From the NCBI GenBank assembly GCA_041654095.1, contig JBAZED010000001.1:117632-181631 (forward strand): a stretch of 64,000 nucleotides of DNA, written 5' to 3'. Below are positions 1,166-23,327 of this stretch, one piece after another (within the stretch, counting starts at the first letter, position 1; the number at the start of each line of letters is the position of its first letter). Origin of the DNA: Bacilli bacterium. Its GTDB lineage: Bacteria > Bacillota_I > Bacilli_A > RFN20 > CAG-826. The notes beneath the pieces are model-generated. The model searched no databases. It worked only from the letters and a program-made list of their open reading frames with translations, and was not told the DNA's origin. The position numbers and the translations under genes were made by a program.

Positions 1166-1167
1166 AG

Positions 1168-1350: not shown

Positions 1351-1386
1351 AAACGGTCATCATGGACGGACCTCCCTCCATCCGAG

Positions 1387-1414
1387 CTGCATCAACCGAT
1401 GCGGCTTTTTTATT
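1387..1414 (+). terminator. rho-independent terminator
   Basis: gctgcatc-aacc-gatgcggc stem (8 bp with one G.U) followed by TTTTTTATT. Confidence 0.6.
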
Positions 1415-1454
1415 ACACTAGTATTTTTCTAGGACTAATTTGTGCAAATTGCCT

Positions 1455-1483
1455 TTGCTACATTCAACCTTTATATATATAAT
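1455..1483 (+). promoter_or_regulatory. sigma-A-like promoter for ftsA-ftsZ
   Basis: TTGCTA - 17 nt - TATAAT, just upstream of the ATG at 1508. Confidence 0.45.
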
Positions 1484-1507
1484 ATAATTCAGAATAAATG
1501 CTCTAAC

Positions 1508-2725: not shown

Positions 2726-2736
2726 GGGGATATCTT

Positions 2737-3879: not shown

Positions 3880-5608
3880 AATTACCAATAGATTAAGTCT
3901 TCGAAAAGCTCTTATTTTTACGTTGGGTTTTTTCGTCCTATTAACATCTTGCGACGGTGGCAATTCGAGCGACACATCGTCATCTTCATCGGGTAATTCG
4001 GCATCGTCTTCCGGTCCGGATATCGAATATCAAGATTACTATAGCGATTATTATGATTCTATTGAATCATGGACAGATGGTGATAATCTTCGCGAACAGC
4101 TGCGAACTCTAGTTAACTACAATGTTAATCTAGTTGACTTTAATGCTAGTTCTAACATTTGGGCCGTCAACCAGCTCGCCGACGAAACCATCGATAATTA
4201 CGATCGCATCGATATCGTCTATGGAAATTATCAGCCTTTAAAAACGTTCACGGCGAGCGGTTCAAACGGCGGCTGGCAGCGCGAACATGCTTTTGCGCAA
4301 TCGCTTGGTGATTTCGATGTAGCGAGCGCCAGCAGAAATGCAAATGAAAGCTTGATCATGAGAAGCGATTTTCATAATCTGTTCGCCTCCGATGGCACTT
4401 TGAATGGTTCCCGAAACAATCTGAATCTCGGCGATGTCACTTCCGAGATGGGAGCGATCAGCAACCCCAAAGATTCGTTTGGAAACGAAACGGAATGCTA
4501 TCGAACCGATTTCGTTTTTGAGCCGCCGGATAAGGATAAACCGATGTTATCTCGCGCCATATTCTATATCGCGACCCGCTTTGCCGATCTCGATGTCGTC
4601 GAAGGAATATCCGCCGTCAGAAGCAAAACCCATGGTATGTTGAGCGACTTGTTGGAATGGTCGGAAAGCCCTGTCACCAGGCGCGAATACAAGCATAATA
4701 TCGGGGTTTATCATTTTCAGAACAATCGGAATCCGTATATCGACTATCCCGAACTCGTCGACTATGTTTTCGGAGATAAAAAAGATGAAGCTGGCGTTTT
4801 AAAAACATTAAGACCATCATATTATGATGTGGTTCTCGCCGGCGGCGAAGAAAACGCTGGCGACACGCATAATTTGACGATAAGAAATGTCAAATCCAAT
4901 TATATGGTAGGCGACCCGTTTTCAAAAGCTGACGATTTAAAAGTCTTTACGGTAGCCAACGATTTAACATTAAGCGATAATTTAGGAATAACCGCTTTTG
5001 AAACGACATATGCTGATTTTTACCATTTTGTTGATGGCGATCTCGGTAAGAAAACGGTATCCGTATCACATCAATCTTTCAATGTCTCTTATGAGATCGA
5101 AATCATCTCAAGCGCATCATCTTTAGCACTCTACAAGTATATATTGACCGCCGACGATGCATTCAAGGACAAAACAGCGCAGAGCACGCCTTATTCGATC
5201 ACTTTAGGCGGTTTGGCTTTTGACTTTTACATGAAGAGCGGATATGCATCGCAATTTCAAGCATCTGCCGGAACCGGTCGGCAGTTCGGAACAAAAGATT
5301 ATCCGATCGACAATATGTATCTCGAGACCAGCTCGCCGTTTAATGTCGATGATAAAACGCGAGTCAATGCCGTTTATATCGTCGCTTCGACGAACAAAAA
5401 CCCAGGGGCATCCCCAGCTATTAATGTGAGCATCGGCGAGTATTCTTTCCCGCAAAGAGCGCTGATCATCGGTCCGAGCGGAACGAATACGCTCTATAGC
5501 TTTGAAGTTCCAGAAGAAGGATCATACGAAGGAAAGGTGCGAATCGCCTTTAGCGGCTTCACCGATGGAGCGTTATATATCAAACAGTTTGCAATCAATG
5601 CCGTTTAG
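3872..5608 (+). CDS. Surface lipoprotein with Endonuclease-I (EndA/Vvn) family nuclease domain
   Basis: Lipobox LLTSC plus Ser-rich linker; motifs WQREHAFAQS and DFHNLFASDGTLNGSRNN match Endonuclease_1 catalytic motifs; its start overlaps the ftsZ stop by 8 nt. Confidence 0.72.
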   Translation: MTKITNRLSLRKALIFTLGFFVLLTSCDGGNSSDTSSSSSGNSASSSGPDIEYQDYYSDYYDSIESWTDGDNLREQLRTLVNYNVNLVDFNASSNIWAVNQLADETIDNYDRIDIVYGNYQPLKTFTASGSNGGWQREHAFAQSLGDFDVASASRNANESLIMRSDFHNLFASDGTLNGSRNNLNLGDVTSEMGAISNPKDSFGNETECYRTDFVFEPPDKDKPMLSRAIFYIATRFADLDVVEGISAVRSKTHGMLSDLLEWSESPVTRREYKHNIGVYHFQNNRNPYIDYPELVDYVFGDKKDEAGVLKTLRPSYYDVVLAGGEENAGDTHNLTIRNVKSNYMVGDPFSKADDLKVFTVANDLTLSDNLGITAFETTYADFYHFVDGDLGKKTVSVSHQSFNVSYEIEIISSASSLALYKYILTADDAFKDKTAQSTPYSITLGGLAFDFYMKSGYASQFQASAGTGRQFGTKDYPIDNMYLETSSPFNVDDKTRVNAVYIVASTNKNPGASPAINVSIGEYSFPQRALIIGPSGTNTLYSFEVPEEGSYEGKVRIAFSGFTDGALYIKQFAINAV

Positions 5609-5851: not shown

Positions 5852-8583
<2,732 letters not shown>

Positions 8584-8584
<1 letters not shown>

Positions 8585-9231
8585 TGAAATGGAAACCGAT
8601 AGCGTATTTTAAAGGCAAGAGCTTAAAAGAGATAGCTAAGGATTTCTTTTTCTCGTTCTTGTGGCTGCTTGTCGTTATTTTTGTCATTGATCTCGTCACG
8701 AAATGGGTTGTCGTCGCCAATTTGCACGAATATCAAGACGTCGTCGTCATCGACAGCTTCTTCTATCTGCGCCTCTCTTTTAACCAGGGAGCGGCCTTTG
8801 GCCTCGGCGATACCGGCGATGTCGAGTGGCGTATTTTGTTCATCGCCGTCTCGCTCGTCATCGGGACGGGCATGCTCATCTACTACATCAAAAAATATGC
8901 GTCGTTGAATATCATCATGAAAATCGCTCTGATCATGATGATCGCCGGCGCGTATGGCAATCTAATCGATCGCGCCTTCTATTGGCCTTCGACGGTCGGC
9001 TTCAGCGGCGTCATCGACTTCCTGTCGTTTGAATTCTGGGGCCGTCGCTTTGCGACGTTTAACGTCGCGGATATGTCGCTCGTCGTCGGCGTCATCGTCA
9101 TGCTCGCCGCCATTGTCGTCGACGACCTAAGACACGCCAAGAAGAAGAGCAAAGAAGACCTCTCGAGACCAGCGCCGGAATACCTCGCGGAAAAAGAAAT
9201 GAAAAATGGAAGCAAAGACGATCAATCATAA
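8584..9231 (+). CDS. lspA: Lipoprotein signal peptidase II
   Basis: ATG overlaps the ileS TGA; motifs NQGAAFG and FNVADMS; four TM segments; conserved ileS-lspA linkage. Confidence 0.9.
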
Positions 9232-10117
9232 GGTCACGACCCAAGTCGGTATGCGGCTCGACAAAGCCCTTGTCGATCTTTTCAAAGATCTCTCGCGGAA
9301 CCACATTCAAAAGCTGATTGAAGACGGTTGCGTTTTCGTCAACGACAAAGCGGTGAAGACGAGCTATCGCCTCCAAACCGGCGACGTCATCAACATCGTC
9401 AAAAGAGAAGATGCCCCTTCTGATCTGACACCCGAATACATCCCCCTCGATATCGTCTTTGAAGATGACGACATTATCGTCATCAATAAACCGCGCGGTT
9501 TGGTCGTCCATCCCGGAGCGGGCAACAAAAATTTAACTTTGGCGAACGCCTTGATGTTTTACACCAAGCACTTGAGCACGATCAACGGCGAATTTCGCCC
9601 AGGCATCGTCCATCGCATCGATAAAGACACCTCCGGATTGTTGGTCGTCGCCAAAAACGATAATGCCCATAACGCCTTGTCCGCCCAGCTCAAAAGCCAC
9701 GCGATGAGCCGCAAGTATTACGCCCTCGTCCACGGTGTCATCTTCGAGGATGAAGGCAAGATCATCGCCCCTTTAGGCCGCGACCATCACCATCGCTTAA
9801 AGATGGCCGTCGATCTGCGCGATGGTAAAGAAGCCATCACTCATTTCCGCGTTCTCGAGCGCTTTTCGAAAGCCACGCTCGTCGAGTGCCGTTTGGAAAC
9901 CGGTCGAACCCATCAAATCCGCGTCCATTTCGAGTATATTCACCATCCGGTGGTCGGCGATCCTCTCTACGGTAAGAAGAGCGATGACATTTTCCGCGGC
10001 GGGCAGCTTTTGCACGCTAAAGAACTGGCGCTCATCCATCCGCGGAGCGGCGAAGCAAAGTCCTTTACCTGCCCGCTGCCTCGCTATTTTGAAGAAGCGT
10101 TATCGAGTCTGAGATAA
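9206..10117 (+). CDS. rluD: 23S rRNA pseudouridine synthase RluD/YlyB family
   Basis: S4 domain followed by the RluA catalytic motif HRIDKDTSGLLVVAK; conserved lspA-rluD linkage. Confidence 0.9.
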   Translation: MEAKTINHKVTTQVGMRLDKALVDLFKDLSRNHIQKLIEDGCVFVNDKAVKTSYRLQTGDVINIVKREDAPSDLTPEYIPLDIVFEDDDIIVINKPRGLVVHPGAGNKNLTLANALMFYTKHLSTINGEFRPGIVHRIDKDTSGLLVVAKNDNAHNALSAQLKSHAMSRKYYALVHGVIFEDEGKIIAPLGRDHHHRLKMAVDLRDGKEAITHFRVLERFSKATLVECRLETGRTHQIRVHFEYIHHPVVGDPLYGKKSDDIFRGGQLLHAKELALIHPRSGEAKSFTCPLPRYFEEALSSLR

Positions 10118-10134
10118 TTGGAGTTTATATTTAA

Positions 10135-10166
10135 TATAAAAAATGGGCCGAAACCCATTTTTTTGT
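10135..10166. terminator. bidirectional rho-independent terminator (rluD / minus-strand lipoprotein gene)
   Basis: AAAAAATGGGccgaaaCCCATTTTTTT: an A-run and a T-run flank a 5-6 bp GC stem. Confidence 0.7.
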
Positions 10167-10179
10167 TATTGATTGGTGA

Positions 10180-12249
10180 CTAGCCGTTGAATTCGACAAG
10201 GCCGAAGACCATGCCCATAAAGCCAGTGCCTGATCCGATGTTGTAGTATACATTCATATAATCGCCGGTAAAATAATTAGCAGGAGCCCCGGGTTCATAT
10301 TTTGTTGCAATAGGAACCCCGCCTACACTAATGAGCCCTTGAGGATTAGGATTCAATAGTGCTGCTGGGCCATCTGACGATTGAAAGCGGGCGTATTCGG
10401 GGCCAAAGCCACTTGCTGAGGTCATAAATGCACCCTTGAAATCAAGAGCCACATTTTCATCGATTTGAATTTTTCCGTTAACCTTAGCAGATGTCGGTTC
10501 CGCGACACCTCCGTCTTTGATGAGACCGATCATGTTGAAATGGGCGATGGGATCAGGCTTTCCGGTGACGGTGATCATCTTCACAATTGATTTTGACCCA
10601 TAATATGGCAACAACTGTGTTCCAAGGGCAACCAACTGCGCGGCAGCACCTGTGGCGCTGACGAGCCTAAACCAGTTCTCGTCACCGGTGACATATGATT
10701 CTAATAATGAATTTTGGACAAGCGTTTGAGGTTGGTATCCGCCCTCTCCTGTCACTTCATCTGCATAGACGTGATCAGAGATGAGAACCGGACCACCTGC
10801 GCCGATAAATTCACAATCCTTAATGAGCAAGTTGGTAGTACCAAAGTTGTAAAGCATGCTGCTGAACGAGTCGTAACCGCGCGTTTTTTCGATCGTGGCA
10901 TTCGGACCGGAGAATTCAGTCAGGAAAATGGTGAAGCACTGTGTGGCGATGACATTATAAACAAGGGAGTCGACACTCAACGTCTTCGAAAAGATGGCAC
11001 CTCCTGATTTCACAGCTTCTTCGGTGCGGTTGGCATTGCCGACGACCGAGAGATTTTTCAGCTCGTAATCGCCTAAATCGTCACCGGTTTGGGCATTGCC
11101 AGCCTTGATGACTGTAGCGTGCGAAATGACTTTTCCCTCTTCTGTAGGACTCTCGACAGAATCCTTAGCTTCGCGAACGACAACAGGTAGCGATGAATAA
11201 TCAAGGTTGAAGTAATTGCCATTGATTACAAAATCTTCGCTAGGAAGAATATCTCGGTAATATACGCCGACGTCATCGCGTAGCGAACCGATGATGCGCG
11301 GGTAGTCGGCACCGTCAGTTGGGGCATCGCTGTCGCCTTCCATGTAGAAGAAACCATCCGGCAATTTGTCGCGTTCGATTTTGATGTCATTGTGGAAGAA
11401 GAGGCCGTCGATGTCGACTTGAGTAATGCCTTTGGCTGTGCGATAGCTATTCCATATATTGACATTGATGTTATCGAAATGGGACAAGTCATCTTGCTTG
11501 TAGACGTTATATCCATTCGCAATCGTAAATATAAAAGAAGTCTCAAATTTGGGTGCCGTTGCGTATTCATCGCCGGCCGGCCGGACGCTCAAACTGTAAG
11601 TCTTGCCGATCGCTGCTTCGGCGAAGTCGTAACTCGATGCGAATTCGTCGATGGCGACGGCAGCGTCGAGTTCAGCACCGGTCAAAGTGACCCATTCGTC
11701 CCCGCGTTTTTCCTTGACGACAGAACTGCTGTGATAAGCGGTGACATTCATCTCCTCACCTTCGGAGTCATAAGCGTAGATAGTCGGGAAGAAGATGAAG
11801 GGATTATCGTCGCCGACGAAGTAGCCTTGTTTGAGATCCTTAAACTCATTGCGCTTGTTCTCGGCACTTTTAGTGGCGATATTGGCTGTGTAGTTGGTGA
11901 CGAACTCAGGCGCGCCGATATTGGTGATCTCATCATATTGGACTATGGTGTAAGTCCAGACGATGCTCTCCGTCTCATAGGCGACGGTGATATCAAATTC
12001 GCCCAATTCGGAAGTATTGAGGGTAGTCGGCGTAAAAGTCAAATTCGCACCATTAATCGTTATCGTCTTATTCTCAAAAGTCGCGGTGACGCTGACTTCA
12101 TTGAGGTCGACGACGGTGTATTGAACGTATTCTTCTTGAAGTCCAGAGGCGACTTCGATGTCGAGCAAGTCGCCATATTCCTCGACGACCGGATCACATC
12201 CGGCGAGAGACATCATAACGAGCGGTAGAAATAGTAAACTCTTTTTCAT
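10180..12249 (-). CDS. Large surface lipoprotein (689 aa); possible Ig-like N-domain plus beta-helix-like body
   Basis: Lipobox LAGC|D; Asn/Thr/Gly-rich with repetitive beta-strand-like segments; last gene of the minus-strand ABC cluster; fold assignment is inference. Confidence 0.65.
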   Translation of the reverse strand: MKKSLLFLPLVMMSLAGCDPVVEEYGDLLDIEVASGLQEEYVQYTVVDLNEVSVTATFENKTITINGANLTFTPTTLNTSELGEFDITVAYETESIVWTYTIVQYDEITNIGAPEFVTNYTANIATKSAENKRNEFKDLKQGYFVGDDNPFIFFPTIYAYDSEGEEMNVTAYHSSSVVKEKRGDEWVTLTGAELDAAVAIDEFASSYDFAEAAIGKTYSLSVRPAGDEYATAPKFETSFIFTIANGYNVYKQDDLSHFDNINVNIWNSYRTAKGITQVDIDGLFFHNDIKIERDKLPDGFFYMEGDSDAPTDGADYPRIIGSLRDDVGVYYRDILPSEDFVINGNYFNLDYSSLPVVVREAKDSVESPTEEGKVISHATVIKAGNAQTGDDLGDYELKNLSVVGNANRTEEAVKSGGAIFSKTLSVDSLVYNVIATQCFTIFLTEFSGPNATIEKTRGYDSFSSMLYNFGTTNLLIKDCEFIGAGGPVLISDHVYADEVTGEGGYQPQTLVQNSLLESYVTGDENWFRLVSATGAAAQLVALGTQLLPYYGSKSIVKMITVTGKPDPIAHFNMIGLIKDGGVAEPTSAKVNGKIQIDENVALDFKGAFMTSASGFGPEYARFQSSDGPAALLNPNPQGLISVGGVPIATKYEPGAPANYFTGDYMNVYYNIGSGTGFMGMVFGLVEFNG

Positions 12250-12340
12250 GGTTTTTATCCTTTCGCGATAATTTTCCCCGTGAATATTTCAGTGCTTTGA
12301 AACGCACCGGAAATCATTGTATCACTTTGCAAAACAAAGA

Positions 12341-12802
12341 TTAAGCATCTGGCGTTTTGGCCAGAAGGCGGACGCGCGCCGAGGCGTTCGAATTGTCATT
12401 GGCCCGAATCGTGAAAGTCTCCGTGCCTTCGTCGAGAAAAGTCGCCCGCCCGGTCTCTGCGTCAACACGAGCGATGAGGCTATTCGGATCAGTATAAAAA
12501 ATGACGCTTTGATTCGTGGTATTAAAAGGGAGAATCTCATAGATGATATCAACTGTCAGATCGACGACGTAAGCCAAAGTCAGCGTCGATCCTTCTTTTT
12601 CGGGATTTTTAATCTTATAGACATTAATGTCTTCGTCATAGTAGGTATCGTATAAATCATCGCCGATGCGAATGCCGGTGCACACGATTTCATGCGCGTA
12701 AATCGTGACATTATAAACTTCCGCACGCTTAAAGATGAGGCCGATGAGGATGATGGCGATCAAGGATAGCGAACTAATGATGAGAATGACTGATTTTTTC
12801 AT
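12341..12802 (-). CDS. N-terminally anchored small surface protein with Ig-like (Big_2-like) domain, 153 aa
   Basis: N-terminal TM/signal anchor (ILIISSLSLIAIILIGLIF) followed by a ~120-aa beta-rich domain; 2-nt gap to the upstream permease gene. Confidence 0.5.
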   Translation of the reverse strand: MKKSVILIISSLSLIAIILIGLIFKRAEVYNVTIYAHEIVCTGIRIGDDLYDTYYDEDINVYKIKNPEKEGSTLTLAYVVDLTVDIIYEILPFNTTNQSVIFYTDPNSLIARVDAETGRATFLDEGTETFTIRANDNSNASARVRLLAKTPDA

Positions 12803-12804
12803 TG

Positions 12805-14481
12805 TTAGTTTATCCGATCATAATAATACGCTTTTATTTTTTCGACGAAAAAGTAGATGGCCGCCCCGAAGAAGACCACGCCGATCAAGAGCAATTTCAA
12901 GAAGGCGAGGCTGAAACTCGTCTCAGGTATAAACTGTTCTTCGTTAAGAAAAGCAAAAGTGATAAAAGCGAATAAAAAAGCGGTCGCAAAGGCAAAGATC
13001 GTCGCTTTCGTCTCGTTGGGATTGTTAATTTGCTCGCCGACGGTCGCGTATTGCTCGTTCTGCGGATTCATCAAATCCATGAGGGCGCAGAAGAGGAGAT
13101 GGCCGACTTGAATGAAGGCCAAAGCAAAGCACAACAGAATAATATTGATGTGAATATAATGGACGTGCATGTTGAAAATTAAGAGCGAAACAGATAAGGA
13201 AGCAACCGATAAAACGATGTTTGGCAATAATTTGGCGATGAGCGGGAAGATGATTTTAACGGGTTTCGTCCGCTTCATGTAAGCGGTGCGCCCTTCCCTA
13301 GAATAGAGCGTGGCGATATAGCTATTTGAAGCCATGAGGGGCAACATGATAATCAAGACATTGAAGGCTTGGACCATGAATTCACCAACGAGGTACAAAT
13401 CCATGGAAGCAAAAATCCGGTTGATGAGCAAGACGACCAAAGGGATAGCGATGTAGGTGGCGATAAAATTGTAGGTGAATTCGCCGGAGCGGAAGAGCAG
13501 CTTTAACTCCTTGAGAGTAAAAGAGATGAAAGGCGGTAAGCGGCGGTTCATAAGCGCCTTGACTTTAAATTTCTTCTCATATTCGAAACTGGCAGCCGTC
13601 ATCTTGATGAAGATGAGGCGCGATAAGAAGTAGATGGACATAAAGAGGGTCGCCAAAATGCCGATGAGGCTGAAGAAGATGAGCCAGACATCGAGGTTGG
13701 CGTATGAGTAGCGCATCGCCGCATCATATTTTCCGACGACCATGACGACGACGTAATAGATGGGGGAGAAGACCTCTTGAAAAAACATCGTCACGTCCGA
13801 GAGCATTATTTTGAGCGGAACCCAGTAAAGGAGGACATTTATTTCGTTAGGTATCAATAAAATCAAGCGGGCGAGCAGGTAGACGCAACCCGCCAAAACA
13901 GCGATGAAAACGGCGATTTTGACGATGCGGTGGCGGTTTAAAAAGCGGAAAATAAAGAGCCCGGGAACGGATAGGACGACGCCGATGACGACCGGGATCA
14001 TCGAGACGAAGAAAAAGGCGATGAAGACCCAGATGTAGAAAAACCAGTTGACCGGAGACATCACGCCATAAGCGATGAAGATGGGCAGAGTAAAAGTCAC
14101 GTTCTTGTAAATTTCGTAGATGTAAAAGACGATGATTTTCGATAAGAAGATGCGGTTGGCGGAGATGGGATAAGTCACCAGGACTTGATTGTCTTCGGCC
14201 ATGTAGAGCGACTTGATGAGCTCCAGCGTGCAAGTGACGATTGAAATACCGAGTATGATCGTCATCAGCATCGTCATGACCGAGGTGGGAATGAAAGGAG
14301 AATTGTGGAAGATCTTCAAAAATGAAGAGAGGAATAAGATGCCAAACGCGATGGCAAAGACGAGCAGAAACCGCAAGATGAAAAAGACGATTTTGCGAAT
14401 TAGCTGCGGCCGATCTCTGATAAACCCTAAGTCGAGTTTATCCTTGAGCTGCATTATGACAAGCGTTTTGATATCTTTCAT
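12805..14481 (-). CDS. Polytopic membrane protein, probable ABC-2-type exporter permease (558 aa)
   Basis: At least 10 hydrophobic helices; lies immediately downstream (4 nt) of an ABC ATPase gene; no recognisable enzymatic motif. Confidence 0.65.
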   Translation of the reverse strand: MKDIKTLVIMQLKDKLDLGFIRDRPQLIRKIVFFILRFLLVFAIAFGILFLSSFLKIFHNSPFIPTSVMTMLMTIILGISIVTCTLELIKSLYMAEDNQVLVTYPISANRIFLSKIIVFYIYEIYKNVTFTLPIFIAYGVMSPVNWFFYIWVFIAFFFVSMIPVVIGVVLSVPGLFIFRFLNRHRIVKIAVFIAVLAGCVYLLARLILLIPNEINVLLYWVPLKIMLSDVTMFFQEVFSPIYYVVVMVVGKYDAAMRYSYANLDVWLIFFSLIGILATLFMSIYFLSRLIFIKMTAASFEYEKKFKVKALMNRRLPPFISFTLKELKLLFRSGEFTYNFIATYIAIPLVVLLINRIFASMDLYLVGEFMVQAFNVLIIMLPLMASNSYIATLYSREGRTAYMKRTKPVKIIFPLIAKLLPNIVLSVASLSVSLLIFNMHVHYIHINIILLCFALAFIQVGHLLFCALMDLMNPQNEQYATVGEQINNPNETKATIFAFATAFLFAFITFAFLNEEQFIPETSFSLAFLKLLLIGVVFFGAAIYFFVEKIKAYYYDRIN

Positions 14482-14485
14482 CGCT

Positions 14486-16705
14486 TTAGCCTTGCTTTGA
14501 TTCCTCGTTTACACTCGGAGTTGGTTCATCGTCGATAACGGCCGTCATCAAATAGTATTCCTCGAGCGTTCCTTGCTTGTGAACATCGTCAATCGTCATC
14601 GGTTCGTGGAGATGGCCTTTTTTAATGACGGCGATGCGCTGGCAGAGATTTTCGACGACATCGATGATGTGGCTCGAGAACATGACGATGTTGCCTTTGG
14701 CGGCGTGTTGCCGCATGCACTCTTTGACTTGGTAGATGCTGTCGGGGTCAAGGCCGGTCAGAGGTTCGTCGAGCAACCAGAGTTTGGGCTCGTGGATTAA
14801 CGCGGCGATGATTGTGACTTTCTGCTTCATGCCGTGCGAAAAAGTCTTGATTTGGCTGTCGAAAGAGTCTTCGAGATGGAAGAGGCTGACATAGTAGGGA
14901 ATCCGCTCTTGCCGCTCGTCATAAGTGACGCCGTAAATGTCGGCGATGTAATTGACGTACTCGCGAGCCGTCAACTTTTCGTACAAGGCATAGTGGTCGG
15001 GGACATAACCGATGAGGCGCTTGGCCATAACGGGTTGTTTTTCGACGTCATAACCGCAGATCGAGATCGAACCTTCGGTGATCGTCTGAATGCCGACGAT
15101 CGATTTGATGGTCGTCGACTTGCCGGCGCCGTTGGGTCCGAGGAAGCCGAAGATCTCTCCGCCGAAGACATTCAACGAAATATCCTTGACGGCGAAATCC
15201 TTGTTTTTTCCGTAGCGTTTGGAGAAGTTTTTCAGCTCCAACTTCACTCCTGTATTCAGTTCCATGGGTTCTTCGAGCCCCCTTCCGTTTAACGATGCTA
15301 ATAAAGCTATTTGATCGAGGCGCATTTTCTTTTGGCGAACGCGGAGGTCACCGAGCGAATCAGCTATGCTGAAACCGACGCTGTAGACGAACCACATCGC
15401 AAAGGAAACGCCGACGTAGACGAGTAAGAAGAGCGCTTGGTAGACCGGGTGAAAAGTAAATGATAAATCGCCGATCATAAAGCTGGAGGAGATGTTGAAG
15501 ATACTCTCGGCCCAGACCCCTAATTTGTCGACGATGAAGTCGCTGTTGATAAAGAAGAAGTCGACGGTCGCGTAATTGCTGAACCAGACATTGAGAATCA
15601 TAACCAATATAAAATAAGCCGAAAAGGCGATGAGCGAATAGTACATCTGCTTCATCTTCGGACGTGGGAATAAGCGTAAAGCGACAAGGAGCAAGGGCAT
15701 GAAAAAGGCCAGGGCGTGGTTGTACCAGAATTGGATGATGACCCAACTCGTCAAGTTCGTGGTTTCCGCATAGTTGGGCATCAGCATCGCCATCAGCGCA
15801 CCGAAAACGTTGATGAAATAAGTGAAGTAAAACAGCTTATCCAGTTTAAATATCAAGCAGATCGGAATGATGTACATGGCGGTATTGCAGAGGTGGATGG
15901 GCCATGTCCACGGCTCCAGGAAATTCCCATAGTAGAAAACGCGCGAAAAGGTGATCATCGTCGCGACGCTCAGATAGACCATGGCAAAGCGGATGATTTC
16001 ATCGTCCTTTTTCTTCAGCGCGAAATAGATGATGAAAGGGATGGTGATCGTCGCGTAGATGAAGAGGCGGTGGACGAAGGAGATATCGATTACTTCATAG
16101 CGGGCGTTCGCGCTTCCGAACATAATCTGCGGGCCGTAGATGGGAAGGCTGGCGAGAAAGATGGGGATGATTGCCAAGAGCAAATTGATGATCTCTGCCT
16201 TAGGCAGTTTGAAGGAGGCGTCCTCGCGCCAGACGATGAACAAACCATAGGCGATCAATCCGCTTTCGAGGGCGAACATAATCGTCGGAAGCGATAAGCC
16301 GAGAGTTCCGGCCGCGTTTCCGATTAGTTGCAGATAGACGCTGTAATATGAAAATCCAAGATAGAAAAGAAATCCGGGCGTGAAGACGAACTTGATGAGG
16401 TTAGCGAGCGTCTTGACTTTGAAAAAAGGATAGAGCATGAGCAAGACGGCTAAAGCAAGTTCAATCCAGATTCCGAAATATGCAAAGAAAGTGAGGGCCG
16501 GAGCAAAAGGGCCTCCAGCTAGGCTGATGATGCTGACAGCCTGATCGGAATACGAAAAATAGCGAACGGCGAAGACGGCAGCTAAAATGATCGCATAAAT
16601 TTTCGCGTATCTTTTCGTCTTGCGTGCGCGCGTTAACCAAAAAGTCAACAAAGCCCCGATGAGGGCTGCGCCAAGGGCGATGAGATGCGACAGGTAATGT
16701 GTCAA
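14486..16705 (-). CDS. ABC transporter ATP-binding protein fused to a large N-terminal polytopic membrane domain (739 aa)
   Basis: C-terminal ~250 aa carry Walker A GPNGAGKST, signature SHGMKQK, Walker B LWLLDEPLTGLD and an H-loop; N-terminal ~470 aa are membrane-embedded with a WPIHLCN motif reminiscent of the YwaF/TIGR02206 (TMEM164-like) family; TTG start with AGGA RBS. Confidence 0.85.
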   Translation of the reverse strand: MTHYLSHLIALGAALIGALLTFWLTRARKTKRYAKIYAIILAAVFAVRYFSYSDQAVSIISLAGGPFAPALTFFAYFGIWIELALAVLLMLYPFFKVKTLANLIKFVFTPGFLFYLGFSYYSVYLQLIGNAAGTLGLSLPTIMFALESGLIAYGLFIVWREDASFKLPKAEIINLLLAIIPIFLASLPIYGPQIMFGSANARYEVIDISFVHRLFIYATITIPFIIYFALKKKDDEIIRFAMVYLSVATMITFSRVFYYGNFLEPWTWPIHLCNTAMYIIPICLIFKLDKLFYFTYFINVFGALMAMLMPNYAETTNLTSWVIIQFWYNHALAFFMPLLLVALRLFPRPKMKQMYYSLIAFSAYFILVMILNVWFSNYATVDFFFINSDFIVDKLGVWAESIFNISSSFMIGDLSFTFHPVYQALFLLVYVGVSFAMWFVYSVGFSIADSLGDLRVRQKKMRLDQIALLASLNGRGLEEPMELNTGVKLELKNFSKRYGKNKDFAVKDISLNVFGGEIFGFLGPNGAGKSTTIKSIVGIQTITEGSISICGYDVEKQPVMAKRLIGYVPDHYALYEKLTAREYVNYIADIYGVTYDERQERIPYYVSLFHLEDSFDSQIKTFSHGMKQKVTIIAALIHEPKLWLLDEPLTGLDPDSIYQVKECMRQHAAKGNIVMFSSHIIDVVENLCQRIAVIKKGHLHEPMTIDDVHKQGTLEEYYLMTAVIDDEPTPSVNEESKQG

Positions 16706-16764
16706 TTTTTGTTCCTGATGAGATAAGTGACGGGCAAATAATGGGTCGGTCCGTATTCGGTAGC

Positions 16765-16793
16765 ATTATAGCACCGGAGGACCATTTTGTTAA
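16765..16793 (-). promoter_or_regulatory. sigma-A-like promoter of the ABC cluster
   Basis: On the minus strand TTAACA - 17 nt - TATAAT, about 55 nt upstream of the TTG start. Confidence 0.5.
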
Positions 16794-16796
16794 ATA

Positions 16797-16820
16797 TCAT
16801 AAAATGGATTTATAATCCAT
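16797..16820 (-). terminator. weak terminator hairpin after the MBL lipoprotein gene
   Basis: Palindrome ATGGATT-tat-AATCCAT spanning the stop codon, followed on the minus strand by a U-rich tract (UUUAUGAUAUUU). Confidence 0.35.
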
Positions 16821-18138
16821 GGCAGACCTGACCCCACGATGTGCTTTGAATATCGCTATATCGATCGGTCGTCGATCCGTAATTATTGGTTATGCTACCG
16901 CGATATGAAGTGCCTTCATAATTCGTCCGAAGCGGCGAGCCTTCCATATAGACTTTGCTGAGTCCGTCGGTCACGAAAGAAGTCGTCCCATTCACGAAAT
17001 TGAGATATATCTTCGGCACGGTGCGCTTGGCTCCTTTAGTTAAATATCGGTCGAGAGTTTGATAGTGCGGGTGACCGGCGCACACGCCGGTACTCCCCCC
17101 ATATGAAGTGTCGGCGAAAGGAGCGCCGGCCGAGATGGTTACGAGTTTCGGTTGCAGGACATTGAGCAAGACATTGTTGCTCGCCTTCGACGAGCCGTGA
17201 TGAGGAGCTTTCATCATCGTCACGGTATGGAAGACATCAGTGTTGGTCGCGTTGGTCTGAACCAGGCGCGTTTCACCAGAACCGCCCGTCCCCCCGTAAT
17301 AGCCGCTTGGATTGTCCTGCAAATCGCCCGAGAAGAAATAGGTGAAATTGCGGTATGAGAGAATTCCGGTCACACAAGTGACATTTAAATCATCGACTAC
17401 GGGTCCATCATTGTAATTGGTGGAATAATAGCCCGTATCGAGCCAATCGATGAAGACTTCGGAAGTGACATAAGTGCGTTTCATTCCGCCGTTTGTTCCA
17501 TTGACCATATCGTAAATGCGGTGATATTCGCTGTCTTGACCAACATAATAGTCGCGAATATTGGTGCGATAATTTTCTCCGCCATATTCGTAATAACCAT
17601 AATCGACGATCATGTCGATTGAAGAAACGGCCGCGCGCAGCGCCAAATACCCCCCATAGTGATCGCTATGAGGATGTGTCAAAATCAAGAGATCTAAGTG
17701 TCCATCATCGAGATAGGCATCATACGTGTTTTTTAATAGGTTGTAATAGGTCGATGAATCGCTAAAGGAAGAAGATGCGTAATTTCCAAAATCCATGACG
17801 ATGGTCGCATCGCCAACTTTGAACAGATATGCATCGCCAACCTCAATCGGTTGCTCGAAAACGACGATTTCCAAATAATCAAACGATGAGTTGGAGAGGG
17901 GGTGAGAGGCGCTTCCTAGGGGCGCTTGCGAATCATAGGTCGCGTTTTGCGCGTCGGTTTTGTCATCCGAACCAATTGCTACGCCGGTGTCAGCCATCGT
18001 CGCGATGCGCTCGGCGTATCCTTGATTCGTTTCGCTGCTCGATGAACCATCGGTGTTCGAACTGCTCGAATTATCGTGCGGGCCGCACGAAGACAAAACG
18101 AGCAGTAAAAGCAAGAGAAACAGCGGTATTCTTTTCAT
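16810..18138 (-). CDS. Surface lipoprotein with ComEC-type metallo-beta-lactamase (MBL) fold domain
   Basis: Lipobox LSSC|G with Ser-rich linker; motifs LILTHPHSDHYGG and APHHGS as in the ComEC/Rec2 C-terminal MBL nuclease domain; start overlaps the rnhC stop (ATGA). Confidence 0.78.
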   Translation of the reverse strand: MKRIPLFLLLLLLVLSSCGPHDNSSSSNTDGSSSSETNQGYAERIATMADTGVAIGSDDKTDAQNATYDSQAPLGSASHPLSNSSFDYLEIVVFEQPIEVGDAYLFKVGDATIVMDFGNYASSSFSDSSTYYNLLKNTYDAYLDDGHLDLLILTHPHSDHYGGYLALRAAVSSIDMIVDYGYYEYGGENYRTNIRDYYVGQDSEYHRIYDMVNGTNGGMKRTYVTSEVFIDWLDTGYYSTNYNDGPVVDDLNVTCVTGILSYRNFTYFFSGDLQDNPSGYYGGTGGSGETRLVQTNATNTDVFHTVTMMKAPHHGSSKASNNVLLNVLQPKLVTISAGAPFADTSYGGSTGVCAGHPHYQTLDRYLTKGAKRTVPKIYLNFVNGTTSFVTDGLSKVYMEGSPLRTNYEGTSYRGSITNNYGSTTDRYSDIQSTSWGQVCHGL

Positions 18139-19079
18139 TTGATATCATCCTTTAAGGCGATGCGAGTAAAATTCTTGAAATTACCCTTCGCGATTTTTAA
18201 AAGCTCTTCCCGTCCGTGTTTTTCGATAAATGACATGGCGAATTCGTCAACTTTATGCGAGGCTCCAAAAGGCAATGTGGTCTTGTATTTTTTACCGAGG
18301 AGCTCCATCTTCTTAAGAAATGAATAACGGGCGATGACGCTGGCGAGAGCGACGGATGGGAAGCGCGATTCGCCCTTCGTTTTAAAAGTGATGTCGCTGA
18401 CGATTTCGACATCGCGCGCAGCATAATTGAAATAACGGGATTCCGAGACGAACTTGTCGACATAGACATGTTTGACATCGGGGTGCCTCTTCAGCAAGTT
18501 GAGGAGGACGCGGTTGTGAAGACGGGCTTTAATTTCATTGAGATTGATGCCTTTATTAACTAATTCGTTATATTTCTCGTTGTTGAGACTGACTTGCGAG
18601 TAGGCGAATTTCTTGAGTAATTGCGAGGCGATGAATCGGATGTGTTCATCGGTCATCTTCTTCGAATCGGTAACACCGATTTTTTTAAGGTATGCGACAT
18701 CTTGTTTACGCACAAGAGCGGCGCAGACCGTGATCGGCCCGAGAAAATCGCCGGTCCCGACTTCGTCGCTGCCTATCTGGTCCTCGATGTCAAACCAACC
18801 CAGTGGTTCATCCTCTTTATCCTCGATATCGAACAGAGTGATGCCTGGGTCCCAACGCGAGGCTTCTTTGGTAAAATCGCCGCCGGCAAAGGTCACTTTT
18901 GCGTCCTTGCCTTTAGTATTTTGGTAGGCGGTAATCGTCGTTTTGCCGACTTTGGCGCGAAACAAAACATAATCGCCGTTATTTTCAATGAGATAGTGTT
19001 GATATGCTTGCTCTATTCTTGCGAGCAGTTGCGCGCTAACTTTAATCGTCACCATGTGATTAGTCATAATTTGCCTCAA
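18135..19079 (-). CDS. rnhC: Ribonuclease HIII
   Basis: 314 aa; N-terminal DUF3378-like region plus RNase HII/HIII catalytic core (DEVGTGDFLGP...). Confidence 0.88.
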   Translation of the reverse strand: MRQIMTNHMVTIKVSAQLLARIEQAYQHYLIENNGDYVLFRAKVGKTTITAYQNTKGKDAKVTFAGGDFTKEASRWDPGITLFDIEDKEDEPLGWFDIEDQIGSDEVGTGDFLGPITVCAALVRKQDVAYLKKIGVTDSKKMTDEHIRFIASQLLKKFAYSQVSLNNEKYNELVNKGINLNEIKARLHNRVLLNLLKRHPDVKHVYVDKFVSESRYFNYAARDVEIVSDITFKTKGESRFPSVALASVIARYSFLKKMELLGKKYKTTLPFGASHKVDEFAMSFIEKHGREELLKIAKGNFKNFTRIALKDDIK

Positions 19080-19139: not shown

Positions 19140-21446
19140 ATGCCTGATATTTATGAAGTCCTCGAATTTATCGAAATCCGCCAAATGATTTCGACTTATG
19201 CCCAAAGCGACATCGGCCGTGAAAGCTCCCTTTCGCTTGAAATGCTCAACAAAGAGAATCTAGGTGGAGAGCTAGCCATTCTCGACGAGATGATGGTTCT
19301 GAATATTCGCTACGGACATCTGCCGATGATGAGTTCGAGCAATTTAACGAGAAAGGTTGAATACGCCCTCAAAGGCGGGACTTTGACCGCTGAAGATTTA
19401 GAAGCCGTCGCCCACGATGTCATCATCACGGCCAAGATAACGGAGTCCATTCGCAAGCGCGAAGAGAAATTTCCCCTGCTCAATAATAAAGTTCGCCTCT
19501 TTCAAACTTTGGAGCAGTTAGAGAAGAGCATACACCGCGTCGTCGGGCCGGACCTCGGCATCTTGAGCAGCGCCTCTTCGACACTTAATTCGATTCGCAA
19601 AAGCATCGCCGAGACCGAGCGCAAAATGAACCTTCGCTTTCAGTTGGCCATCGATTCGTTGCGCGATTACATGAACGAGCCGGTTGCGACGATTCGCAAC
19701 GGGCATTTCGTCCTGCCGATTAAAACAATTTTTAAAGGCAAAGTCAGCGGCGTCATCCACGACATTTCCGATACGGGGATGACGACCTTCATCGAACCCG
19801 ATTGGGCAGTGGAGTCAAACAACCAAATTTACATCTTAAAAATCGAGGAGCGCGAAGAGATTCAAAGGCTCTTAAAGGAGCTCAGTATTTTGGTGGCGCG
19901 GTTCAGCGCGGAAATACTGACGAATAACGCGTTGATCGGCTACCTGGATTTTCTTCAGTCGAAAGCTCTTTACGGGATGGCGACCGATGCCAAAATCGCG
20001 GAATTGAGCGAGCAGAGGACCATCGATATTAAGAAAGCGCGGCATCCTTTAATCGACCCAAAAGCCGTCGTCGCTAACGATTTTGTCTTCGACGAAAAAA
20101 CGCGTATCATCGTCATTAGCGGACCAAACGCCGGCGGCAAGACGGTCGCCATCAAAACGCTCGGTTTGATGATTATAATGAATCAATGCGGACTGGCTAT
20201 TCCAACCGCAAATCATGCAAAAGTATCATATTTTAGTCATATTTTTGCGGATATTGGCGATAGTCAGTCGCTGGCCAGCAATCTCTCGACCTTCTCCGGA
20301 CACATTAAAAACCTTGCCGAGATCGCCGATCAAGTCAGCGTTGAGGATCTCGTTTTGCTCGACGAAATTGGAACGGGAACCTCGCCTTTAGAAGGCGAAG
20401 CATTAGCGATTGCCTACCTCGATTATTTGCGCAGAGTCGGTTCCTTCGTCTTTTGCTCATCACACTATGACGGATTAAAAGACTATGCTTTGAATACCGA
20501 CTGCATCATCAATGCTTCCGTCCTCTTTGATGAGCAGAAAATGACTCCGACCTACGTCTTAAAACGCGGTGTTCCGGGTCGCAGTTACGGCCTCGAAATG
20601 GCCGATCGCTACAACCTTTCAAAGAGCATTATTAGCAGCGCAAATGATATCTTAAAAAAACAGGGTCACGACCAGAGTATCAGCGCTCTTGGAAACCTTC
20701 AAAAACTAATCTCTGAAAGCGAGGCTAAAACCCAACTTCTGGATGCCGAAATCAAGAAGGTTGCCAACCTCGAAAAGAGCCTGCTTGAACGCGAACAAAA
20801 ACTTGAAAATCAACGCCTCCACCTGCTCGAAGATGTCGAGGAATCAAAGCGCGAAACGATTGCCAAAACCGAGCTGGAAATCGAGGGCATTATGCAGGTG
20901 CTTAAAAACCCCAATCTGAAAATGCACGAGGTCATCGAGGCGAAGCGCAAACTCAAGGAATTAGACGATGATGAAGTCGAAATTTCGACAAGTGAAACTG
21001 GCGAAATCAGCGCCGGCGATTATGTCTCAATCATCGAAATGGGCATTTTAGGTCGCGTCGAACGCGTGAGCGGCGACAAGGTCTTCATCATCTCTTCCGA
21101 TGGACTGAAGTTCACCTCTTCTAAGAACCGAGTTCGCATTATCGACGCCCCGCGACATCAATCGGTGGAAAAACCTTTTACAGCTCCGAACATCACGAGC
21201 GATGTTAAATTAGAATTAAACGTCATCGGCCTCCATGTCGACGAAGCTTTAGAAGAGTTATCGCGATATCTCGACGGCGTCCGCCTAAAGCGCTTTTCAC
21301 AAGTGCGGATCATTCACGGCTTCGGCACGGGAGCGCTGAAAAGAGCAATTCACGAATATCTGAAAAAGTGCGATTTTATCGAAAGCTTTCGACCTGGTGA
21401 TCAGCACGAAGGGGCCGGGGGTGCCACGGTGGTGAAACTCAAATGA
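19140..21446 (+). CDS. mutS2: Endonuclease MutS2 (MutS domain plus C-terminal Smr)
   Basis: 768 aa; Walker A GPNAGGKT; C-terminal Smr (LNVIGLHVDEALE...HGFGTGALK). Confidence 0.92.
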   Translation: MPDIYEVLEFIEIRQMISTYAQSDIGRESSLSLEMLNKENLGGELAILDEMMVLNIRYGHLPMMSSSNLTRKVEYALKGGTLTAEDLEAVAHDVIITAKITESIRKREEKFPLLNNKVRLFQTLEQLEKSIHRVVGPDLGILSSASSTLNSIRKSIAETERKMNLRFQLAIDSLRDYMNEPVATIRNGHFVLPIKTIFKGKVSGVIHDISDTGMTTFIEPDWAVESNNQIYILKIEEREEIQRLLKELSILVARFSAEILTNNALIGYLDFLQSKALYGMATDAKIAELSEQRTIDIKKARHPLIDPKAVVANDFVFDEKTRIIVISGPNAGGKTVAIKTLGLMIIMNQCGLAIPTANHAKVSYFSHIFADIGDSQSLASNLSTFSGHIKNLAEIADQVSVEDLVLLDEIGTGTSPLEGEALAIAYLDYLRRVGSFVFCSSHYDGLKDYALNTDCIINASVLFDEQKMTPTYVLKRGVPGRSYGLEMADRYNLSKSIISSANDILKKQGHDQSISALGNLQKLISESEAKTQLLDAEIKKVANLEKSLLEREQKLENQRLHLLEDVEESKRETIAKTELEIEGIMQVLKNPNLKMHEVIEAKRKLKELDDDEVEISTSETGEISAGDYVSIIEMGILGRVERVSGDKVFIISSDGLKFTSSKNRVRIIDAPRHQSVEKPFTAPNITSDVKLELNVIGLHVDEALEELSRYLDGVRLKRFSQVRIIHGFGTGALKRAIHEYLKKCDFIESFRPGDQHEGAGGATVVKLK

Positions 21447-23250: not shown

Positions 23251-23327
23251 GTCCTCTTAGCTCAGCTGGATAGAGCAACGGCCTTCTAAGCCGTAGGTCA
23301 GGCGTTCGAATCGCCTAGAGGATGCCA
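23251..23327 (+). tRNA. tRNA-Arg (anticodon UCU)
   Basis: Cloverleaf folds by eye: acceptor GUCCUCU/AGAGGAU (G1.U72 wobble), D-arm GCUC-AGCUGGAUA-GAGC, anticodon stem ACGGC/GCCGU with loop CUUCUAA, T-arm AGGCG-UUCGAAU-CGCCU, discriminator G, encoded CCA. Confidence 0.88.

Follow-up and report, generated by a model that had tools for sequence, protein, structure and literature searches.

A four-gene operon of uncultured Firmicutes joins an exporter-type ABC transporter to a fused membrane acyl-transferase-like domain

ABC machines with the type V (ABC-2/ABCA/ABCG/NosY) transmembrane fold include the NosDFY(L) complex for nitrous oxide reductase maturation (PDB 7o0y), which is the one solved type V system with a beta-helix partner, bacterial ABC-2 exporters with a double-length permease such as Rv1217c-Rv1218c, the exporters of lipid-linked polymers Wzm-Wzt, TarGH and KpsMT, and the eukaryotic ABCA/ABCG lipid transporters. 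Other ABC machines, such as LptB2FGC, carry a single-pass accessory subunit. Membrane acyl-transferases and hydrolases of the ATGY superfamily (TMEM164/YwaF/LhaT) have 6-7 TM helices, a variable nucleophile (Cys, Ser or Thr) on core TM2 and an invariant His on core TM4. In human TMEM164 these residues are C123 and H181 (bioRxiv 10.1101/2022.07.06.498872). TMEM164 and AIG1 act on lipids, whereas LhaT acts on lipoprotein N-termini and acylates its substrate on the outer face using a lipid carrier, for which the route across the membrane (a dedicated flippase or none) is unresolved (PMC12345273). Bacterial YwaF itself has no assigned function in the literature we could search.

Here we describe a locus in which elements of these systems come together. 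It lies in a 64,000-nucleotide stretch (the window) of a Bacilli bacterium genome (GCA_041654095.1, contig JBAZED010000001.1, positions 117,632 to 181,631). The original prediction proposed a self-contained ABC-exporter cluster ending in two surface proteins, and this observation is confirmed by our analysis.

Organization and conservation of the locus

All four genes are on the minus strand: g1 at 14486-16705 (739 aa, TTG start, identical to the NCBI-called protein P0090), g2 at 12805-14481 (558 aa), g3 at 12341-12802 (153 aa) and g4 at 10180-12249 (689 aa). The gaps are 4 nt between g1 and g2, 2 nt between g2 and g3, and 91 nt between g3 and g4. A sigma-70-type promoter, TTAACA-17-TATAAT with a TG-extended -10, is found at 16793..16765 on the minus strand, about 60 nt upstream of the g1 start. 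It matches 11 of 12 consensus positions, is the best site in the region and is the only site in the window within one mismatch of TTGACA-N17-TATAAT, against 0.23 such sites expected per window; 21 of 100 shuffled sequences gave at least one. The strong bidirectional intrinsic terminator AAAAAATGGGCCGAAACCCATTTTTT at 10138-10163, which has a 10-11 bp stem flanked by an A-run and a T-run, lies between g4 and the convergent rluD gene (9206-10117, plus strand). On the minus-strand RNA it folds at -11.9 kcal/mol (z = -3.6) and is followed by a U-run. No minus-strand terminator-like site lies inside the cluster. On the other side, the cluster is flanked by a gene for an MBL-fold lipoprotein (16810-18138, minus strand) that overlaps rnhC (18135-19079, minus strand).

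The cassette occurs in at least 384 species-level genomes from gut, rumen and digester habitats, and all of the 80 genomes that we inspected are MAGs. Many carriers are reduced-genome Bacilli once binned as Mollicutes. A lack of synteny among relatives had been named in advance as an outcome that would overturn the proposal, but the opposite was found. Of 58 evaluable loci, 56 have all four genes adjacent, 54 of them in the order g1-g2-g3-g4, while in 2 more g4 is placed directly upstream of g1. These loci lie in unrelated genomic contexts, and no other gene family recurs in more than 8 of 86 loci. The architecture persists down to 26-29% identity of the membrane domain. Two Christensenella-type loci (designated L051 and L058) lack g4 nearby, and the most divergent cassette (L090) has a different large lipoprotein, hence the beta-helix is not strictly required. 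One copy per locus is the rule, and only locus L089 carries a tandem g4 duplicate. Between Bacilli and Clostridia, sequence identity falls from inside to outside, from about 50% in g1 and about 40% in g2 to about 25-33% in g3 and g4, which fits a surface-exposed g3 and g4.

Sequence and fold of the four proteins

A more careful look at g1 shows what the original prediction missed, namely that the "membrane domain" of the ATPase is an ATGY-type, acyl-transferase-like enzyme domain. The Pfam TMEM164 profile (PF14808) matches residues 215-398 with 65.4 bits against a cut-off of 25 (E = 6.7e-18), and ABC_tran matches residues 506-649 with 94.4 bits. All 120 listed homologues carry the same two domains, and NCBI names some of them "YwaF family protein". 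The membrane part, residues 1-445 (15371..16705, minus strand), has 13 TM helices with the N-terminus outside and the C-terminus inside, and its ATGY core maps to about 15512-16063. This topology rests on charge bias only. Averaged over 20 homologues, the K+R counts of the inside loops are 3.4, 1.1, 3.35, 2.5, 1.45, 2.95 and 7.05, whereas those of the six short outside loops are 0.35, 0.5, 0.35, 0.95, 0.1 and 0.3. The long 46-residue outside loop 376-420 has 2.8 K+R but 5.45 D+E. The whole 13-TM unit also exists elsewhere as a stand-alone protein of about 460-500 aa without any ABC partner.

The candidate catalytic nucleophile is Cys273 (motif P-x-H-L-C, codon at 15887..15889, minus strand), and the candidate catalytic histidine is His330 (motif N-H, codon at 15716..15718, minus strand). 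Both codons were confirmed by translation. The two residues are invariant in 20 fusion proteins of 37-79% identity and are 57 residues apart on alternate helices, against 58 residues between C123 and H181 of human TMEM164, although we did not superpose the domain explicitly on TMEM164. The Cys aligns with the Cys of a stand-alone YwaF homologue, in which the neighbouring His271 is not kept. The positive-inside rule places both residues at the extracytoplasmic ends of TM9 and TM11, and the predicted outer-face chemistry resembles that of LhaT. Acyl-transfer or ester-hydrolase activity on a lipid substrate was not assayed.

The nucleotide-binding domain (NBD) of g1, residues about 486-722 (14540..15250, minus strand), is of the ABC-2/ABCA type. 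Its Walker A (GxNGAGKST), signature (SHGxKQK), Walker B (LDEP with Glu647) and H-loop (His679) motifs are intact and invariant in 20 homologues. The best solved relatives are the NBDs of ABCA3, ABCA4 and ABCA1, at E down to 8.5e-60, and NosF and LptB are also matched. That the transporter might belong to a well-characterised family had likewise been named beforehand as a refuting result. However, the ATPase scores far below the curated NCBIfam cut-off of each subfamily: DrrA 198 against 312, GldA 193 against 403, NodI 153 against 521, lantibiotic/bacitracin protection 149 against 310, PmtA 122 against 350 and LptB 131 against 240. The usual neighbours of resistance exporters, such as two-component systems, are absent in the eight fusion-cassette contexts with Pfam annotation, and no biosynthetic genes were seen nearby. 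A comparison with the PADLOC models of anti-phage defence systems gave only generic NBD similarity for g1 and no hits for g2-g4.

The permease g2 has about 12 TM helices rather than the about 10 originally proposed. By sequence it hits only the uncharacterised Pfam families ABC_tran_2 and 12TM_1, but it has the type V fold, with ABCA4 as the best structural match, NosDFY as the second best, and PmtD and Rv1217c among the others. Its length is similar to that of Rv1217c (529 aa). Although about 12 helices and 558 aa are compatible with a tandem transmembrane domain that serves two g1 copies, no internal repeat was detected by hhalign, and the stoichiometry and contacts of such a complex were not examined by multimer prediction or otherwise. 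The permease fold is type V and exporter-like, and none of the four proteins matches a solute-binding-protein family in Pfam. Hence, the locus is not an SBP-dependent importer.

The small protein g3 is a single-pass membrane protein with an extracytoplasmic Big_2-like Ig domain. The N-terminal TM helix (MKKSVIL..IYI.SI..VGF.G) is its best conserved part, and a PDNAT-type motif lies in the Ig domain. The Big_2 profile (PF02368) gave a split answer and does not settle the assignment, as the window protein scores 17.8 bits against a cut-off of 22.8, whereas 7 of 24 family members match at E <= 0.01, the best at 6e-6. Phage Ig-domain PHROGs also match at E 2e-4.

The lipoprotein g4 begins with MKKSLLFLPLVMMSLAGC, in which the lipobox LAGC occupies residues 15-18 (12196-12207). 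A lipobox is found in 60 of 64 homologues, 3 of the other 4 have a near-lipobox, and C18 is conserved in 96% of the alignment. The gene lspA is encoded in the window (Peptidase_A8 in locus L001). The lipobox is followed by two Ig-like domains (about 11500-12177) and by a right-handed beta-helix of the pectin-lyase fold with a C-terminal part (about 10183-11412). D138, D147, D148, D201, D245, D288, D325, H377, K422, D460 and E524, together with many Tyr and Trp residues, are kept in at least 80% of 50 homologues, and the same invariant residues are kept across classes. Whether any of these residues are the catalytic residues of a defined glycoside hydrolase, lyase or epimerase family is left undecided, as identity to every solved enzyme is only 4-15% and the model coordinates were not inspected. 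Several g4 invariants (the GN motifs) are likely structural asparagine-ladder residues rather than catalytic ones.

Comparison with described systems and possible function

In comparison with NosDFY, the beta-helix protein is here itself the lipoprotein and carries Ig-like domains, the permease is double-length, there is an extra single-pass Ig subunit, and the ATPase carries a fused 13-TM Cys-His enzyme. NosD is not among the 60 best matches of g4, and no nosZ or copper genes are present, so the locus does not fulfil the definition of a NosDFY-type machine by a NosD-related beta-helix, a NosL copper chaperone and a link to nosZ. In comparison with TMEM164, YwaF and LhaT, the domain has 13 TM helices, is fused to an ABC ATPase, is co-inherited with a permease, an Ig protein and a lipoprotein, and its substrate has not been identified. 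The locus shares the NBD subfamily and the type V fold with the double-length ABC-2 exporters, the lipid-linked polymer exporters and the ABCA/ABCG transporters, but none of these systems has a fused acyl-transferase domain or these partner proteins. The resemblance to LptB2FGC is an analogy only, as there is no sequence relationship and g3 has a Big_2-like Ig domain, not a beta-jellyroll. We found no literature on the four-gene unit.

The original reading of the cluster as a candidate uncharacterised export or surface system is supported. The emphasis shifts, however, from plain export to export coupled with acyl transfer at the outer leaflet, and the choice between surface export or assembly and capture is still a matter of inference. 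What the analysis shows is a self-contained, vertically conserved four-component envelope module built on a type V ABC transporter, with g2 as the transmembrane part, g1 as the ATPase with its fused ATGY domain and invariant Cys-His pair, g3 as the single-pass Ig protein, and g4 as the beta-helix lipoprotein rich in conserved Asp, Glu, His, Tyr and Trp residues. Everything beyond this is inferred and has low confidence. In this view, two g1 copies dock on one g2, which would provide both transmembrane halves, and the Cys-His site faces the outer leaflet. The conserved g3 helix would pack against the transporter, as accessory single-pass subunits do in other ABC machines, and its Ig domain would link to g4. 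ATP hydrolysis would extract or flip a lipid-anchored molecule, which could be a lipid-linked glycan or glycolipid, or a lipid acyl donor. The fused enzyme would form a thioester intermediate and move or remove an acyl chain at the surface, and the beta-helix lipoprotein would bind or trim the glycan part. Unfortunately, no glycosyltransferase or lipid-synthesis genes are linked to the cassette, and, as the 13-TM enzyme also occurs alone, the coupling of catalysis to transport is an assumption.

Two alternatives are less likely, and we rank them equally. The module may be a mechanotransducer of the NosDFY or FtsEX type, in which nothing crosses the membrane and ATP-driven movements of g2 are passed through g3 to switch g4 on and off, where g4 could be a glycan-cleaving or glycan-modifying enzyme acting on the cell's own envelope or matrix. 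Alternatively, it may remodel acyl chains on membrane lipids or on lipoprotein N-termini, possibly that of g4 itself, without any glycan substrate, with the ABC part supplying or removing the lipid donor, acceptor or product. This would serve, for example, the use of exogenous lipids or lipoprotein N-acylation in lineages that lack Lnt. In agreement with this second alternative, ATGY members act on lipids or lipoprotein N-termini, the NBD is closest to the ABCA phospholipid transporters, ABCA4 is the best structural match to g2, the last gene is almost always a lipoprotein gene even where it is not a g4 homologue, and many carriers have reduced genomes. However, it does not explain why a beta-helix with conserved acidic and aromatic residues is kept, a general lipoprotein-modifying enzyme would not be expected to need a dedicated lipoprotein and Ig partner, and the stand-alone 13-TM homologues work without ABC partners.

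A glycan-foraging unit, in which g4 is a surface depolymerase for dietary or host glycans, the ATGY domain an esterase and the transporter takes up or handles the products, is unlikely. The g4 fold does match pectin, alginate and glucan depolymerases, and the habitats of the carriers would suit such a role. However, type V transporters with this NBD family are exporters, flippases or transducers, no solute-binding protein is matched, and no linked sugar-catabolic genes are seen, and the single-copy rule and the invariant residues kept across classes are unlike polysaccharide utilisation loci, which are patchy and variable. An ordinary ABC-2 resistance or peptide exporter of the bacitracin, lantibiotic or daunorubicin type that happens to sit next to two surface proteins is very unlikely in spite of the best NBD hits (DrrA, GldA, NodI and lantibiotic-protection ATPases) and of PmtD and Rv1217c among the g2 fold matches, as those NBD hits are far below their cut-offs, no two-component system, biosynthetic or immunity genes are nearby, and the fused enzyme, g3 and g4 are co-inherited with the transporter in 56 of 58 loci.

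In summary, under our preferred but tentative reading, the module would export and tailor a lipid-anchored surface glycoconjugate. Conserved in hundreds of uncultured gut and digester Firmicutes, this operon is a good candidate for an undescribed cell-surface remodelling machine.

The four-gene cluster and its genomic surroundings

The cluster consists of four open reading frames that lie head to tail on the minus strand: g1 (14486-16705, 739 aa), g2 (12805-14481, 558 aa), g3 (12341-12802, 153 aa) and g4 (10180-12249, 689 aa). The intergenic gaps are 4, 2 and 91 nt, and g2 and g4 are preceded by AAGG/AAGGA-type ribosome-binding sites. About 60 nt upstream of g1 lies a TTAACA-17-TATAAT promoter with a TG extension (16765-16793), which is the only site in the 64 kb window within one mismatch of the sigma-70 consensus at 17-nt spacing, against 0.23 expected. 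Downstream of g4, between it and the convergent rluD gene, lies the hairpin AAAAAATGGGCCGAAACCCATTTTTT with a folding energy of -11.9 kcal/mol (z = -3.6), and no terminator-like site on the minus strand interrupts the cluster. Hence, the original prediction of a self-contained, tightly packed four-gene cluster with its own promoter and a closing terminator is confirmed. The window is identical to a contig of an uncultured "Bacilli bacterium" MAG. An Rfam search of the whole window found no RNA element in or next to the cassette, the only matches being a tRNA gene (23251-23324) and a ribosomal protein L21 leader (35687-35763).

We also considered whether the gene upstream of the promoter is part of the unit. 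It encodes a 442-aa lipoprotein with a metallo-beta-lactamase (MBL) fold and weak similarity to the ComEC C-terminal domain (16810-18138, minus strand), and its start overlaps the stop of rnhC (RNase HIII; 18135-19079, minus strand) by 4 nt, so that the two genes look translationally coupled. This pair recurs in 7-8 closely related loci, but it is absent next to the cassette in other lineages, and we therefore rejected the MBL-fold lipoprotein as a component of the unit.

Domain composition of the four proteins

The g1 protein has two parts. Residues about 486-722 form an ABC ATPase in which all catalytic motifs are invariant, namely Walker A, the signature SHGxKQK, Walker B with Glu647 and the H-loop His679. 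It belongs to the ABC-2/ABCA branch, and its best solved relatives are the NBDs of ABCA3, ABCA4, ABCA7 and ABCA1, followed by bacterial ABC-2 ATPases including Rv1218c, NosF and LptB. Its best NCBIfam hits (DrrA, GldA, NodI and lantibiotic protection) are all far below their cut-offs.

Residues 1-445, which the original prediction described simply as a membrane domain, are not a generic one. Pfam places residues 215-398 in the TMEM164 family at 65 bits against a cut-off of 25, and NCBI labels some homologues "YwaF family protein". TMEM164, YwaF, AIG1, GPC1 and YpjA/LhaT form the ATGY superfamily of membrane acyl-transferases and hydrolases, which carry a Cys/Ser/Thr nucleophile on core helix 2 and an invariant His on core helix 4, these being C123 and H181 in human TMEM164 (bioRxiv 10.1101/2022.07.06.498872). 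In an alignment of 20 fusion proteins of 37-79% identity, P269-x-H271-L272-C273 and N329-H330 are invariant, and C273 and H330 are 57 residues apart. In locus L003, from a Bacilli MAG, a separate 277-aa YwaF/TMEM164 gene (4692-5525, minus strand) lies divergently just upstream of the cassette, so that the same genome keeps a classical YwaF next to the fused one. This stand-alone homologue aligns PFQLCST to PIHLCNT, showing that the Cys is the shared residue, whereas His271 is not. A 13-helix model with the N-terminus outside and the NBD inside fits the positive-inside rule in every loop, averaged over the 20 homologues, and places C273 and H330 at the extracytoplasmic ends of helices 9 and 11. 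This placement is inferred from charge bias. An hhalign comparison of residues 1-205 with residues 206-460 found no internal duplication, and a sequence search against the PDB yielded no usable relative of the g1 membrane domain, nor of g2 or g4.

For the permease g2, hhalign of its two halves likewise found no detectable repeat, and the idea of a tandem TMD therefore rests on its length and fold only. The g3 protein has an N-terminal transmembrane helix followed by an Ig-like domain with a Big_2-type PDNAT motif. The helix (MKKSVIL..IYI.SI..VGF.G...YN) is the most conserved part of the protein, which suggests that it packs against the membrane subunits. The Big_2 match is below threshold for the g3 of the window, but 7 of 24 relatives do match, which leaves its assignment to this family undecided, and phage Ig-domain families match as well. 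Beyond these Ig domains and a generic NBD, the PADLOC and PHROGs comparisons showed no membership in a defence system or a phage protein family.

The g4 protein is a lipoprotein with LAGC at residues 15-18, and a lipobox is present in 60 of 64 relatives. Its AF2 model is confident (pLDDT 92.4, pTM 0.87). The N-terminal ~250 residues resemble tandem Ig-like domains of S-layer protein Sap and of LigA, and relatives swap or add N-terminal Ig-like and Flg_new repeats. Residues D138, D147, D148, D201, D245, D288, D325, H377, K422, D460 and E524, together with many Tyr and Trp residues, are conserved in at least 80% of 50 relatives. We infer from this composition, which is typical of carbohydrate-binding or carbohydrate-active sites, a possible role of this kind, although these residues were not mapped onto the beta-helix, and several invariant GN motifs are probably structural. 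Many other predicted lipoproteins of the window (16810-18138, 39624-40112, 46971-47819, 63508-64000 and others) have Ser/Gly/Asp-rich low-complexity linkers right after the lipobox Cys, which suggests a lipoprotein-dominated surface.

Co-inheritance of the cassette

A lack of synteny of the four genes in any relative had been singled out beforehand as an observation that would speak against a functional unit. In order to examine this, we compared six relatives of g4 at 59% to 24% identity, from Bacilli, Erysipelotrichales and Clostridia MAGs. All six show the same four genes in the same order, one in the genomic context of the window and five in unrelated contexts. A scan of one genome per GTDB species with the g1 membrane domain found at least 384 species with a relative. 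The 80 best hits are all MAGs or metagenome bins of uncultured Bacilli, Erysipelotrichales, Christensenellales and other Clostridia, including bins once named Staphylococcus sp. CAG:324, Coprobacillus sp. CAG:698 and "Mollicutes"; the remaining 300 or more hits were not inspected for cultured carriers.

We then built HMMs from seven cassettes and searched the ORFs of all 86 loci. Every locus has the fusion, and 54 of the 58 loci with enough downstream sequence have g2, g3 and g4 in order. In two of the four exceptions, g4 lies immediately upstream of g1. The other two (L051 and L058, both Christensenella UBA5893-like) carry g1-g2-g3 but no g4 anywhere in the 21 kb locus, and greA and gpmI-like genes follow instead (after about 14250). 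All-against-all clustering of the neighbours found no other gene family in more than 8 of the 86 loci, and those that recur reflect close relatives of the window's lineage. A small membrane protein of about 142 aa is encoded immediately upstream of g1 on the same strand in 7 loci (L044 969-1397, L004 5065-5499 and 5 further loci) and may be a lineage-specific fifth component. In locus L079, a second ABC-2 ATPase without the YwaF domain (E 2e-92 to the g1 HMM) is followed by a weakly g2-like permease (19813-21338), which is a possible unfused paralogue.

Two very distant fusions (26% and 29% identity in the membrane domain) again show the order fusion, ABC_tran_2, a protein of 145-171 aa and a large lipoprotein. 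In one of them (L089), two tandem g4-type beta-helix lipoproteins (12638-15214 and 15547-17712) follow one cassette, so the lipoprotein partner can be duplicated. In the other, the most divergent cassette (L090), the fourth gene (8364-11618) encodes a 1084-aa lipoprotein with Flg_new repeats that the g4 HMM does not recognise, and the g3 HMM does not hit its small protein either. The partner may have been replaced, or it may simply be too divergent to detect.

Against 1.84 billion cluster representatives, the 13-TM domain finds only 215 clusters at E <= 0.001, which are a mix of fusions of about 720-830 aa and stand-alone proteins of about 460-500 aa. One stand-alone homologue of the whole 13-TM domain (L087 8001-9392, 463 aa, 29% identity) has no ABC, Ig or beta-helix neighbours and lies between chromate-transporter, aldolase and alpha-amylase genes. 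The 13-TM enzyme is thus an autonomous module that one lineage of cassettes has fused to the ATPase. Conservation falls from the cytoplasmic and membrane parts to the surface parts, being about 50% for g1, about 40% for g2, and 25-33% for g3 and g4 between Bacilli and Clostridia. Taken together, the four genes form one unit.

Possible mechanism and relation to known systems

The analysis establishes a competent ABC-2 ATPase, a type V permease, a fused ATGY domain with its catalytic pair intact, a bitopic Ig protein and a beta-helix lipoprotein, as well as their co-inheritance. The stoichiometry of two g1 on one g2, the outer-leaflet position of the active site and the contacts of g3 and g4 with the transporter are, in contrast, inferred, as is the function itself. 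By architecture the closest system is NosDFY(L), by enzyme domain it is TMEM164/YwaF/LhaT, and by transporter it is the ABC-2/ABCA/ABCG class with a double-length permease, like Rv1217c. Membership of a well-characterised transporter family was the other outcome specified in advance as contrary to an uncharacterised system, but the cassette does not qualify for any characterised ABC-2 subfamily. It does not qualify for NosDFY either, as there is no NosD-specific similarity and there are no nos genes. It does fulfil the criteria for the type V fold, the ATGY family, lipoproteins and the beta-helix fold. The reading of the cluster as a candidate uncharacterised export/surface system is therefore supported. 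In the literature searched on TMEM164 with ABC transporters, YwaF, PF16949, TIGR02206/PF09529/DUF1405 and ATGY, only the TMEM164 paper, the LhaT paper and unrelated hits were found, with nothing on this fusion or cassette, and bacterial YwaF appears only in the TMEM164 paper, as an orphan family. What is new relative to the known type V ABC machines is the unprecedented fused acyl-transferase-like enzyme and the dedicated Ig and beta-helix partners.

Type V transporters extract or flip lipids and lipid-anchored polymers (ABCA, ABCG, Wzm-Wzt, TarGH, KpsMT), and in NosDFY they transmit ATP-driven movements to a beta-helix partner. ATGY enzymes move acyl groups on lipids. LhaT acetylates lipoprotein N-termini on the outer face using a lipid carrier, and whether that carrier needs a flippase is an open point (PMC12345273). 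Our preferred, though tentative, model is that the ABC part delivers a lipid-anchored substrate, or a lipid acyl donor, to the outer leaflet, that the fused enzyme then forms a Cys273 thioester and transfers or removes an acyl chain, and that g3 and g4 hold or process the glycan part of the same molecule. This would amount to export plus tailoring of a lipid-anchored surface glycoconjugate. The absence of linked glycosyltransferase genes, the two loci without g4 and the stand-alone enzyme homologues speak against this model. The division cluster of the window (224-3879, plus strand) reads rsmH, ftsA, ftsZ with no mur, ftsW or pbp genes between them, as in Mollicutes, and the related locus L001 shows the same arrangement. 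The organism may be wall-less or have a reduced wall, which would bear on what the cassette acts on. A 578-aa lipoprotein-like protein (3872-5608, plus strand; Endonuclease_1 family in the L001 orthologue) starts inside the last codons of ftsZ, and a surface nuclease directly coupled to the division genes is an odd arrangement.

Two alternatives are less likely and about equally so. A NosDFY/FtsEX-like mechanotransducer that controls g4 leaves the enzyme domain unexplained, whereas a lipid or lipoprotein acyl-remodelling machine without a glycan substrate leaves the conserved beta-helix unexplained. A glycan-foraging unit is more doubtful still, as the transporter is of the wrong class, there is no binding protein and the conservation is housekeeping-like. 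An ordinary resistance exporter is very improbable, given that there is no subfamily membership and there are no typical neighbours.

A bolder possibility, which we consider unlikely but which is not excluded, is that the cassette is the first example of an ABC-coupled extracytoplasmic acyl-transfer machine. In this view, a type V ABC transporter flips a lipid acyl donor or a lipid-anchored acceptor and hands it directly to a covalently fused outer-leaflet Cys-His ATGY enzyme, which, with its Ig adaptor and beta-helix lipoprotein, then acylates or de-acylates a surface glycoconjugate or lipoproteins. This would be a conserved envelope-building pathway in uncultured, often reduced-genome gut Firmicutes.

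Bacterial YwaF/TMEM164-type proteins have no assigned function in the literature searched. Here, one of them is hard-wired to an ATPase, a permease and two surface proteins, which gives a concrete, testable context, and under the bolder reading it would be the first functional context for these proteins in bacteria. How cells deliver energy and activated acyl groups to reactions outside the membrane is an open question, which was raised explicitly for LhaT (PMC12345273), and an enzyme-ABC fusion would be a new answer to it. The cassette would also add a second case, after NosDFY, of a type V ABC transporter working with a beta-helix partner. Furthermore, with relatives of the g1 membrane domain in at least 384 species-level genomes, of Christensenellales, other Clostridia, Erysipelotrichales and uncultured Bacilli from gut, rumen and digesters, the unit is widespread and may therefore shape the surface, and the immune visibility, of abundant but unstudied commensals.
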